Assembly: GCA_965230455.1 (NCBI GenBank)
Contig: CBDDKY010000003.1
Location: forward strand, 1,439,856-1,503,855
DNA: 64,000 nt
From: Gammaproteobacteria bacterium
GTDB lineage: Bacteria; Pseudomonadota; Gammaproteobacteria; CBDDKY01
Reading direction: 5' to 3'
Position numbers and translations under genes: made by a program. The notes beneath the pieces were generated by a model. The model saw only the letters and a program-made list of their open reading frames with translations. It searched no databases and was not told the origin of the DNA. Shown here in pieces: positions 11,373-25,406 of the stretch; positions within the stretch are counted from its first letter, which is position 1; each line of letters begins with the position of its first letter.

Positions 11373-11540
11373 GGCCTGTTGCGTCATTATCTTTTTTATT
11401 GAATGAGTAGGCGTAATATGAGTGAGCCGACGCGTATTTTTATTGTAGGCTATATGGGTGCCGGTAAATTTATATCTGCCGATGCTTTAGCTAAGAGATT
11501 AGGGTGGCCGCTGGTGCATGCCAACCCAAGTATAGAATGC

Positions 11541-11758
11541 TATACCCGTAGCGTTTGAGTTTTAGGTTTTTGAGCTGCCATCTGCCAACTACCTTTGAAT
11601 GATTTTGCCCTAAAAAAATCGTCGGGTAGAACAATAGCTACCATCCTCTTTTTTTAGGGCAAAATCATTCAAATCTAATTGACATCTGGCGCTCAAAACA
11701 ATAGCGTGCTCCATGGAAAGCTTCATGCAACACCTAAAACTCAAACGCTACGGGTATA
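11541..11758. mobile_element. ERIC-like MITE
   Basis: TATACCCGTAGCGTTTGAGTTTTAGGT ... ACCTAAAACTCAAACGCTACGGGTATA, with a long internal inverted repeat (TTTGAATGATTTTGCCCTAAAAAAA). Confidence 0.85.
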
Positions 11759-11883
11759 TAGTCCCCGCAGTTGAAAGTTCGGGAAATTATTTGTTAATGT
11801 GATAACATAAGTTTTATATTTTAGCGCCTGGATGTTAGTCAGATTTGAACAATTTTTACTGAAAAAACGAGGATTTTAGCTAT

Positions 11884-11907
11884 TGTAAGTCTTAGTTTTG
11901 TTATAGT
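11884..11907 (+). promoter_or_regulatory. -10 half of the IS110 circle-junction promoter
   Basis: Joining the right end (...CATGGTTGAT) to the left end gives TTGATT-N17-TATAGT; TG precedes the -10 box (extended -10). Confidence 0.75.
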
Positions 11908-11913
11908 AGGTCC

Positions 11914-12096
11914 CAAGAGAGTAGAACCCCGGGCATAAGCCCAGGGTTCGCGGGCATGAGCGACCGTATAGCTATTGGTAAAACCAACCGCGTAGAATCC
12001 AGGTACTCTAGCCCAGCTCTCGATACGTTTGAATGGTTGCAAGGGACACATAAAGTGCTCCCGCTTACAATCGTAAACACCTTTAACTATCGAGAG
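11914..12096 (+). ncRNA. IS110 bridge RNA (5' hairpin, target-binding loop, donor-binding loop)
   Basis: Hairpin 11924-11949. Stem-loop 11952-12014 carries TATAGCTAT and TAGAAT, matching the target. Stem-loop 12017-12096 carries ATGGTTG and CTTACAAT, matching the donor junction. RNA ends are approximate. Confidence 0.85.
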
Positions 12097-12100
12097 GACT

Positions 12101-13058
12101 ATGATGGTAGCATATAATAACTTCGTTGGCATTGATGTCGGTAAATTCAATTTTTTTGTTAACTTGCACGGCGCCCCCCCCCGTTCATGAATACCCTAAT
12201 GACATCAGTGGAATACAAGCATTTCTAACCGAATACTCTGCAAAACTCCAACAAGCTTTATGTGTGATAGAAACAACAGGTGGCTATGAAGCGCCCCTGC
12301 TCTTAACACTCTGTCAACAACACATAGCGGTTCATCGTGCCAATACACGCCATGTAAAAAGTTTTATTCGTTCCTATGGACACGGGGTAAAAACCGATGC
12401 ATTGGATGCAAAAGCTCTGGCACGCTATGGCTATGAACGACATGAAACCCTGGCTTGTTATGAGCCGCCCAATGATACTCAAAGCGAACTCTATAATTTG
12501 GTCAGTCGCCAGCATGATTTAAAGCAAATGCGCACAGCTGAAAAAAATCGATTGAAAGCTCCTAATACAAGCAGTTTAATGCAAGCCAGTTGCTCGCGTA
12601 TGATAGAGATGCTTACGAATGAAATTGAAGCCTTTGAAACGCGCATTAATGCGTTGATAGCCGATGATGAATTACTGACGTTTAAGAAGACGGCTATACA
12701 AACCATACCAGGCATCGGAAAGATACTCTCCAGTGAGTTAATCGTTCTATTACCTGAGCTAGGCCAATTGAGTCGACGAGAGATTGCTTCTCTGGTGGGA
12801 GTTGCTCCAAGAGCGAATGACAGCGGAAGACATCAAGGTTATCGTTCCACGGGTCATGGACGACCAGGCATTAAGCCAAGGCTATACATGGCGGCGATGG
12901 CAGCACGGAACTCAAACTCTTCGTTAAAAACTTTTTATAATGGGCTTGTTGAGCGAGGGAAGCCAAAGAAAGTGGCTTTAACCGCATTAATGCGAAAAAT
13001 TATTGTTATAGCTAATGCCCGTATTAAAGCGCTTAACTTGTCAATACAACCGACTTAA
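12101..13058 (+). pseudogene. IS110 recombinase/transposase, frameshifted at a C9 tract
   Basis: ATG 12101 gives MMVAYNNFVGIDVGK (first catalytic Asp). The remainder (VIETTGGYE, KTDALDA, IPGIG, NDSG) is in another frame. One fewer C at 12174-12182 would fuse the two. Confidence 0.88.
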
Positions 13059-13432
13059 ACATGAATCTATAGGATAGGCTCTCAGTCACACCTGCATAAT
13101 TCCTGAAGCGGAGTGAATATTGATATTTCTCACCATTAAGCTTGTGGACCCTGTGTATAAGTGATGTACCCTAACTAAAAGTTGGTTCTCAGCGAAGGAG
13201 ACACTTGAAAAAGCCGCATGTAGTTGATGGAGTAACAGCACTTTTGGTCTGTTATATGGGCAAAGAACTAACCTTTACAACATGGTTGATTCTAAATGAC
13301 AAGTTTTTTCAGTAAAAATTGTTCAAAGATGGCTGGCAGACAGACAGCTAAAACCCGAGGTTTCAACTGCGGGGACTATATATTGGGAGGCAGACTCGTA
13401 ACGATATGATTTGACGGTTATGCTGATAAGCC

Positions 13433-14197
13433 CTAGTCTTCTCGATAAACCGCACTATAACCATGTTGCATTACCGGCATCACAATGATTTCGCTTACAT
13501 TAACGTTAGCCGGAGCATTGACGCAGTAAGCAACACTATCGGCAATGTCGTTGCCTGTCAGCGCTTCAAAACCGTGGTAGACAGCTTCACTTTGTTCTTT
13601 ATCGCCTGCAAAACGTGTCTGACTAAACTCTGTTTCCACAAGGCCCGGTGAGACCTGGGAGACTCTAATGTGTTTGCCAGCAAGGTCTAATCGTAGGCCT
13701 CGACTGAGCGCATCTACGGCGTGTTTGGTGGCGCAGTAAACGCTACCACCGGCATAGACATTATGGCTGGAGGTAGAGGCAATATTCACAATATGTCCGT
13801 TGTCTTTTACCACCATGTGAGAGAGGACTAAGTGAGTGGTATACAGCAGCCCTTTGATATTAACATCAATCATTTGGCTCCAGTGAGCAGGATTAGCGTC
13901 TTGTAGTTTATCCAGGCTAAGTGCCAAGCCGGCATTATTGATGAGGACATCAACCTGAGCAAGCTCTTGAGAAAAGCCGTGGAAACACGCTTCCACGGTT
14001 TCACGCGTGGAGATATCACAAGGGACGCTCAGGCAATTGATAGCAAATTCGCGTTCTAGTTTAGCGGCAAGCACGTTGAGGCGCTCCTCGCGTCTGGCCA
14101 CCAATATTAAATTCGCACCTTCTTGGGCAAAACGTTCTGCACATGCAGCCCCAATGCCGCTGGAAGCGCCTGTAATCAGGATGGTTTTATTTTTCAT
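13433..14197 (-). CDS. NADP-dependent SDR oxidoreductase (YdfG-like)
   Basis: TGASSGIG, LINNAG and YCATK motifs. Confidence 0.9.
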   Translation of the reverse strand: MKNKTILITGASSGIGAACAERFAQEGANLILVARREERLNVLAAKLEREFAINCLSVPCDISTRETVEACFHGFSQELAQVDVLINNAGLALSLDKLQDANPAHWSQMIDVNIKGLLYTTHLVLSHMVVKDNGHIVNIASTSSHNVYAGGSVYCATKHAVDALSRGLRLDLAGKHIRVSQVSPGLVETEFSQTRFAGDKEQSEAVYHGFEALTGNDIADSVAYCVNAPANVNVSEIIVMPVMQHGYSAVYRED

Positions 14198-25188: not shown

Positions 25189-25406
25189 TATACCCAATTA
25201 ACCTGAAGATGCTTGGTTTTGATATTTTTTATTACTGAGCTTAATTTGAAGATTGAGCGTCCAGATAATGAGTAGATTTAACCGTTTTGACCGAAGATTG
25301 CCGGAGTAATAGCTATTCTATTGCGAGGACAAGCTGAGGGAAAAACGGCTAAAGATGCTCATTAGATGGAATGCTCAAACAAGCATCTTCAGGTTAATTG
25401 GGTATA
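25189..25406. mobile_element. ERIC-like MITE holding an unoccupied IS110 target
   Basis: 27-bp terminal inverted repeat TATACCCAATTAACCTGAAGATGCTTG; ATAGCTATTCTA in its central region at 25309-25320. Confidence 0.88.

Follow-up and report, generated by a model that had tools for sequence, protein, structure and literature searches.

The window, i.e. the whole stretch of 64,000 nucleotides analysed here, carries an insertion sequence (IS) of the IS110 family on the plus strand at 11884–13290 (1407 bp, TGTAAGT...GGTTGAT). The IS is inserted in a MITE, designated MITE_A; a second one, MITE_C, adjoins this host, and a third, MITE_B, holds an empty site 12 kb from the IS. The assignment to the IS110 family is supported by the absence of terminal inverted repeats and by the core AT(T), which alone is repeated at the junctions, in all copies. 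In the window, the core dinucleotide AT is found on each side of the IS, at 11882–11883 and 13289–13290. The limits of the IS were determined from the empty MITE_A copies (...GATTTTAGCTATTCTAAATGAC...), which place the insertion point between AT and TCTA; ATT is common to both junctions, and the boundary is uncertain by 3 nt at most.

When the region was compared by BLAST with the genome (2.76 Mb in five contigs, C1–C5, with the window on C3), five full, one interrupted and four partial IS copies were found, all of which end at identical bases and which vary at five positions only. The partial ones are two short remnants of the left end and the two parts (positions 1–814 on C2 and 811–1407 on C3) of a copy that another multicopy IS has split. 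It was also found that the copy at C4 188016–190684 contains, at position 229–238, an insertion of about 1.26 kb with 10 bp repeated.

The recombinase gene is located at 12101–13058 on the plus strand. When in frame, it encodes a protein of 318 aa with the domains PF01548 (E = 2.9e-23) and PF02371 (E = 2.5e-14), and both domains are also recognized on the ORF of the window. This protein matches the ISCro4 transposase (E = 1.8e-23) and, over the whole length and only distantly, the IS621 transposase of structure 8wt6 (E = 9e-25). With a 2-residue offset of the PDB chain allowed for, its residues D12, E57, D99, D102 and S241-G242 align with D11, E60, D102, D105 and S241-G242 of IS621. The accessible part of the IS621 structural report (PMC11208158) describes D11, E60, D102, D105 and S241 (with G242) as essential residues.

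In the assembly, the recombinase gene of the window copy is frameshifted at a run of nine C (12174–12182). The C run was compared with those of the other full copies (C3 1293109–1294514, C4 62735–64142, C4 88570–89975 and C5 89231–90637) and of the remaining copies that contain it: it is eight long in four copies, nine in the window copy and one other, and ten in one, and the reading frame is intact with eight only. In the sequencing runs X1–X3, which were available as assembled contigs in which minority forms may be lost, the sole short-read contig over the run has eight C, at about seven times the single-copy depth (380.7 versus about 52 in X1). Since the short-read contig shows eight C only, the nine-C and ten-C forms are probably assembly errors of the long-read homopolymer kind; a slippage switch could be the alternative source of the variation. 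A further run, X4, labelled as a metagenome, contains contigs that differ from the IS at 20 of 1094 nt (about 98% identity, over 11915–13292) and have eight C, together with the empty form of MITE_A, and a related strain therefore carries both elements.

Hairpin tips of the host MITEs

MITE_A, with the IS inside, extends over about 11757–13383. Its left arm (11757–11883, plus strand) starts with the terminal repeat TATAGTCCCCGCAGTTGAAA and ends with ...TTTTAGCTAT at the tip of the hairpin, and its right arm (13291–13383, plus strand) begins with TCTAAATGAC and continues up to the terminal repeat. The two arms are complementary up to the insertion point, and the IS thus sits exactly at the tip of the hairpin, the place that a preceding reading made from the sequence alone (the sequence-only reading) had assigned to it. 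In the genome, empty MITE_A elements are represented by 24 pairs of terminal repeats located 217 bp apart, and in the contigs of the sequencing runs, the depth of the empty form is that of a multicopy sequence, which the other copies lead one to expect.

MITE_A and a 1125-bp element of the IS630 family share their terminal 31–35 nt without any difference. The usual marks of an IS630-derived MITE were all found: shared ends, TA at both ends, no coding capacity and many copies. Judged by its sequence, MITE_A is a derivative of this resident element, and the name 'ERIC-like' given to it earlier is not appropriate because its ends match the IS630-type element directly. The IS630-family element encodes a 342-aa DDE_3 transposase and has 25 full copies in the genome, the majority being 100% identical (e.g., C3 164818–165942, corresponding to L086 119–1243). 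It often lies directly beside MITE_A, with TATA common to both, and is likely the driver of MITE_A. The near identity of the MITE_A copies and the complete identity of most IS630 copies indicate that the system moved recently.

MITE_B (25189–25406, plus strand) is 218 bp long, has terminal inverted repeats of about 27 nt, and occurs in three full copies in the genome. MITE_C (11540–11758) lies on the minus strand and carries at its tip GTAGCTAT+TGT+TCTA (11627–11641): its target is split at the crossover by three bases, TGT, which are the first three bases of the IS. The sequence-only reading had noticed a part of this motif, at about 11633–11640. An unsplit MITE_C loop, GGTAGCTATTCTACC, is found at C2 729690.

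Folded as single strands, the three elements form long hairpins with the motif at the tip (z-scores of −7.7 for MITE_A, −7.4 for MITE_B and −9.5 for MITE_C). The apical stems are TTTAG/CTAAA in MITE_A, GTAATAG/CTATTGC in MITE_B and GGTAG/CTACC in MITE_C, and the common loop is CTATT, replaced by CTATTGTT in the MITE_C of the window. The guide described below spans the conserved TAG, the loop and the conserved CTA, with the core inside the loop. That the elements have different terminal repeats and a common loop motif thus holds for three families, all with CTATT at the tip. The central hairpins of MITE_A, MITE_B and MITE_C can be aligned with one another (MITE_A and MITE_C are 72–75% identical over about 128 nt), and the common tip is therefore a shared module provided with different ends.

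Relatives of these hairpin MITEs that have the TAG...CTA apical stem and other loops (TTATT, TCATT and CCGTT) also exist, at C3 464377–464482, 875361–875462, 531939–532067 and 1220888–1220977. Since they keep the stem but not the loop, the architecture of the tip is older than the exact IS target.

The bridge RNA and its guides

A bridge RNA gene was recognized at 11902–12085 on the plus strand, in the left end of the IS: a −10 box, TATAGT (11902–11907), is followed by two internal loops that bear guides. The 216-nt left end of the IS folds with a z-score of −4.25, better than all of 200 shuffled sequences. In an alignment of 12 orthologues, the RNA scaffold has 36 consensus pairs, of which 18 hold their pairing through two-sided changes. 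In the same 12 orthologues, two segments of the first internal loop vary between the genomes and the second loop is nearly constant. A search of Rfam, which contains no family of this kind, returned no bridge RNA match over 11400–13500; it gave sub-threshold microRNA-like matches on the MITE_C hairpin. The right non-coding end of the IS (13059–13290, 232 nt) is long, given that all the guides lie in the left end.

The four guides were located on the plus strand. In the first loop, the left target guide ATAGCTAT (11968–11975) has the sense of the left half of the target including the core AT, and the right target guide TAGAAT (11993–11998) is the reverse complement of AT+TCTA. In the second loop, the left donor guide ATGGTTG (12033–12039), as read from the sequence, matches the right end of the IS (...ATGGTTG-AT), and the right donor guide CTTACAAT (12064–12071) is the reverse complement of AT+TGTAAG, i.e., of the core and the left end of the IS. 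The position of the left donor guide is kept as ATAGTTG in the orthologues with the right ends ATAGTTGAT, and the right donor guide is nearly invariant in the 12 orthologues. The target guides together spell ATAGCT-AT-TCTA, which is the very 12-mer that the sequence-only reading took to be encoded by the guide.

The assignment of the target guides is supported by their covariation with the flanks. In the orthologues, the 8 bases following GCGACCGU are the same as the 8 bases to the left of the element, and the 6 bases ahead of the closing stem, reverse-complemented, give the first 6 bases to the right of the element, counting the core. A restrictive scaffold pattern was applied, which took 20 of 81 loci (with 8 different guides on the left and 5 on the right, several loci being copies from the same genome), and the controls were guides set against the flanks of loci with other guides. 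At least 7 of 8 positions agree between the left guide and its flank in 12 of 17 pairs, a count in which the Wolbachia rows are one base out of register, versus 4 of 218 mismatched-pair controls; at least 5 of 6 agree for the right guide in 16 of 17 pairs versus 0 of 206 controls. The flanks of the window IS itself agree with its guides at 7 of 8 positions on the left and at 6 of 6 on the right. The core is AT because the right flank of every orthologue starts with AT. An alternative register with the core TT was ruled out: besides this invariant start, its ninth guide base is often mismatched.

Finally, a promoter-like pair of boxes, TTGATT-17-TATAGT (−35/−10), was found in silico only across the joined ends of the IS and is absent from the integrated context. 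For IS621, a promoter rebuilt across the joined ends is described in the accessible parts of PMC11208160 and PMC11208158.

Target sites and flanks of the IS copies

The 12-mer ATAGCTATTCTA is found at 25309–25320 on the plus strand, at positions 121–132 of MITE_B. The sequence-only reading had pointed out this intact target in the centre of the element, and it is indeed a 12/12 match to the guides and is unoccupied, with the core AT at 25315–25316 and the predicted insertion after 25316. It is the sole exact match in the window. When up to 2 mismatches are allowed, 8 matches occur in the window versus 8.14 expected from shuffled sequences, and such loose matches therefore carry no meaning.

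In the whole genome, the situation is different for the exact forms. With a first-order Markov expectation, the 12-mer is found twice versus 0.49 expected, and the 11-mer TAGCTATTCTA is found 33 times versus 1.78 expected. The 33 sites of the 11-mer are distributed over 26 MITE_A-type loops, 2 MITE_B loops, 2 MITE_C loops and 3 other places, the last number being at the chance level; hence, 30 of the 33 sites lie in the three MITE families. Both exact 12-mers belong to MITE_B and both are empty (25309 and C3 480733), and the third MITE_B copy has a T-to-G change within the motif. The fit to the guides is thus 12/12 in MITE_B, at two sites, and 11/12 in the abundant MITE_A. The idea that the sequence at 25309 resembles the target by chance and has no biological meaning could appeal to the numbers of loose matches in the window, which equal those of the shuffles. 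It is hardly credible, considering that an exact 12-mer is expected only 0.49 times in the genome while both occurrences are at MITE_B tips, and that another MITE_B loop bears an IS junction at the same base.

The junctions of the IS copies were then assigned to their surroundings: 9 of the 16 junction halves lie in the loops of MITE_A, MITE_B or MITE_C, and 7 lie outside. Among the 9 left flanks, 3 are in A-type loops (the window, C3 1293109 and C4 62735), 2 in MITE_C loops (C2 390664 and C3 86205) and 4 elsewhere, i.e., 1 beside a repeat of about 70 bp (C4 88570, where the left guide fits at 7 of 8 positions) and 3 in sequence outside the MITE loops. Among the 7 right flanks, 3 are in MITE_A, 1 in MITE_B (C4 62735) and 3 in unique sequence. 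Simple insertions, with one element on both sides, are represented by the window copy, by C3 1293109 in a variant of MITE_A, and by the remnant at C3 86205 in MITE_C. The sequence-only reading had regarded the MITE loops as a multicopy landing place, and had named as grounds for giving this up a motif not enriched in the MITEs and other IS copies lying outside repeats. Neither was the case: the motif is enriched there, and junctions exist in all three families. The preference is nevertheless not absolute, as the 7 halves outside the loops show.

Two of the full copies lie outside the MITEs. The one at C5 89231 agrees with the guides in the right half (6/6) and poorly in the left half, and the one at C4 188016 agrees at 8/8 in the left half and at 5/6 in the right half. 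Directly at the right junction of the former, a 39-bp unit is tandemly duplicated (C5 90638–90715); the units end with CTAATT and start with CTAAGTG, by which the junction itself is mimicked.

Several IS copies have mismatched flanks: MITE_A and MITE_B (C4 62646–64269), the 70-bp repeat and MITE_A (C4 88477–90066), and MITE_C and unique sequence (the split copy, C2 390414–391476 with C3 1210240–1211086). No reciprocal products of these copies were found in the assembly. Such flanks suggest IS-mediated deletions or recombinase-driven exchange; they would have arisen from recombination between copies with loss of the intervening DNA, or from 'half-match' events, which are described for IS621 and for expanded IS110 loci in the accessible part of the literature. 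The repeat of about 70 bp, which ends with ...GATTTACTGCYGATTTTAGGTTAAA, has at least 91 copies (C4 89976–90066 and about 90 further places), and unique sequence follows every one of them.

The copy at C4 62735–64142 bears on the question of which families are true targets. Its right junction is exactly AT|TCTATTGCGAGG, followed by 92 nt at 96.7% identity to the end of MITE_B, and this junction is at the base equivalent to the one predicted for 25309. It might be considered that MITE_A alone is the true target, that the junctions in MITE_B and MITE_C arose from later rearrangements between repeats, and that the motif at 25309 is not used at all. Indeed, neither of the two exact 12-mers is occupied, and all simple insertions lie in A or C loops, which also speaks against our own reading; moreover, the sole MITE_B junction is on a copy whose flanks differ, with MITE_A to the left and MITE_B to the right, and the IS copies in MITE_C are without exception truncated or decayed. 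However, past the junction, the right arms of MITE_A and MITE_B have only TCTA in common. Ordinary homologous exchange could therefore not have put the breakpoint exactly at the core, so that either the IS was once in a MITE_B loop or the recombinase recognized such a loop; in both cases, the copy requires recognition of the MITE_B loop. In addition, the 39-nt remnant at C3 86205 is flanked by MITE_C on both sides and therefore represents a simple insertion in a C loop, and the guides fit MITE_B at all 12 positions. A restriction to MITE_A is thus very improbable.

We therefore prefer the reading, to which we assign a probability of roughly 85%, that this IS of the IS110 group selects its landing sites by a bridge RNA that its left end encodes, the target being the hairpin tip common to the three MITE families. 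In the proposed mechanism, the left guide ATAGCTAT and the right guide (reverse complement ATTCTA) of the target loop would jointly specify ATAGCT-AT-TCTA with the core AT, and the donor loop would hold the guides for the joined ends of the IS itself (...ATGGTTG-AT-TGTAAG...). The 12-mer would correspond to the apical stem-loop xxTAG-CTATT-CTAxx of the hairpin module and would thereby offer about 30 intergenic landing sites, among which 25309–25320 in MITE_B would be a perfect and unoccupied target. The IS would move via a circle, whose joined ends may form the promoter TTGATT-17-TATAGT. As far as can be judged from sequence, the IS may be active at present.

The sequence-only reading had further suggested that the intact ends of the host MITE might move the IS as cargo. 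Under such a scheme, the IS would also spread within a 1.6-kb composite moved by the transposase of the resident IS630-family element. The window composite does have both terminal repeats of MITE_A, which are identical to those of the 25-copy IS630-family (DDE_3) element, and this system moved recently. The genome contains, however, one such composite (1624 bp) versus 24 empty MITE_A pairs, and no MITE_A+IS composite was found in it at a second TA site. For the second IS borne by an A-type element, the left arm of the host is of another kind and lacks the terminal repeat, and the two A-borne IS copies differ at 3 of the 5 variable positions and are therefore not each other's closest relatives. 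Transport as cargo is possible in that a mobilizing transposase is present; nothing in the genome shows its occurrence, and we consider it quite unlikely.

The MITE_C loops form a series of their own. The inserts found in them are TGT (in two copies including the window), T, and left-end remnants of the IS of 39 nt and about 66 nt, at 11627–11641 of the window (minus strand), C5 1759–1978, C3 443165–443359, C3 86080–86340 and C5 126281–126360. Each insert lies exactly between AT and TCTACCC, and the inserts are stretches of the left end of growing length. Comparable left-end inserts were not found in the MITE_A loops. The IS110 family is described as excising without scars. The inserts may be nested left-end remnants, i.e., scars of aberrant excision. 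It is a doubtful, though not far-fetched, proposal that the MITE_C loops are a natural record of aberrant one-ended recombinase events and that the window composite can also be moved by the 25-copy IS630-family element. If they are half-match products, formed between the right junction and pseudo-sites inside the IS, this genome records scarred excision and recombinase-driven shuffling of MITE halves, the copies with mismatched flanks being cases of the latter.

Comparison with relatives and known systems

Orthologues were retrieved on the basis of the protein (loci L006–L055), and their recombinases are 42–60% identical over most of the length. Their hosts are mostly uncultured Gammaproteobacteria, MAGs labelled as Legionella, Legionella nautarum, Wolbachia and other intracellular Alphaproteobacteria. 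They share with the window IS the RNA scaffold, the donor ends ..GTTGAT / TGTAAGT and the AT core, and several lie in palindromic repeats. They differ in the guides and targets, for example GAAGCAAT/ATCCAG and CGAGGGAT/ATCTCC. In addition, the target of the nearest orthologues lies in the stem arm of a palindrome, whereas that of the window IS is at the tip.

The closeness of the system to more distant genomes was also surveyed. Among 40 class-level relative genomes, the IS was not detected in 39, the remaining one (G038) having 105-nt matches at 74% identity, and none of the 40 yielded MITE_A. A plasmid collection gave no match. A metagenome scan with the 26-nt left end of the IS gave 0 matches, and one with a degenerate tip pattern gave 41, none of which has MITE-like flanks; these 41 are therefore chance matches.

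The likeness to IS621 of E. coli is extensive. Both elements have a two-domain recombinase with aligned catalytic residues. According to the accessible part of PMC11208160, IS621 likewise carries a left-end bridge RNA with the target loop before the donor loop, left guides in the top-strand sense and right guides that are complementary, each with the core, and likewise inserts into a multicopy palindromic repeat. The differences are as follows. The core is CT in IS621 and AT in the window IS; the target guides of the latter, 8 nt on the left and 6 nt on the right, are unlike those of IS621; and IS621 targets REP, whereas the target here is a 12-nt sequence in the loop of IS630-type MITEs. The targeted places of the window IS are not REP sequences but the tips of 218-bp elements with terminal inverted repeats of 20–27 nt.

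The IS1111 group belongs to the same superfamily. Members of the group, among them IS4321/IS5075, are directed to repeats or to terminal repeats that other transposons carry, and IS1111 inserts in palindromes of Coxiella. The group encodes its guide RNA at the right end, downstream of the gene, and possesses subterminal inverted repeats; in the window IS, by contrast, both guide loops are upstream of the gene, at 11968–12071.

ISPpu9 and ISPpu10 of Pseudomonas putida are similar to the window IS in that they insert into palindromes, namely REP/BIME, as stated in the accessible part of PMC12288879; the hosts of the window IS, unlike these, are transposase-mobilized MITEs with terminal inverted repeats. 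For ISPpu10, the stem-loop of the target is said to matter in the accessible part of a preprint (10.64898/2026.03.19.712850), where it adds to the specificity. This raises the idea that recognition by the window IS needs the extruded hairpin in addition to base pairing (a 'dual match'), in line with the compensatory changes through which the apical stem around CTATT is maintained in all three MITE families. The geometry, however, is not the same: in ISPpu10, as far as the available portion of the preprint goes, a 5′ extension pairs with the left target, whereas in the window IS the two halves of the target pair together, with the core in the loop. Two full IS copies at sites without a MITE also argue against such a need, as do the closest orthologues, whose target occupies a palindrome arm instead of the tip, and the common descent of the MITE hairpin module can account for the conservation of the stem. 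We regard the dual match as unlikely and retain the reading that the guides select the tip.

IS110 elements that target palindromic repeats are already known (IS621 and ISPpu9/10), and the known mechanism is unchanged by the present case. In the literature searched, supplements aside, no description was found of an IS110 element aimed at the tips of MITEs. Here, a mobile element lands harmlessly on a multicopy site, the conserved tip of hairpins that belong to other mobile elements. One genome shows the whole logic of the bridge RNA: the guide, about 30 sites, occupied and empty forms, half-match off-targets and mismatched flanks. For those who engineer bridge recombinases, it is also useful to have an orthologue with an AT core and a defined target of 12 nt.
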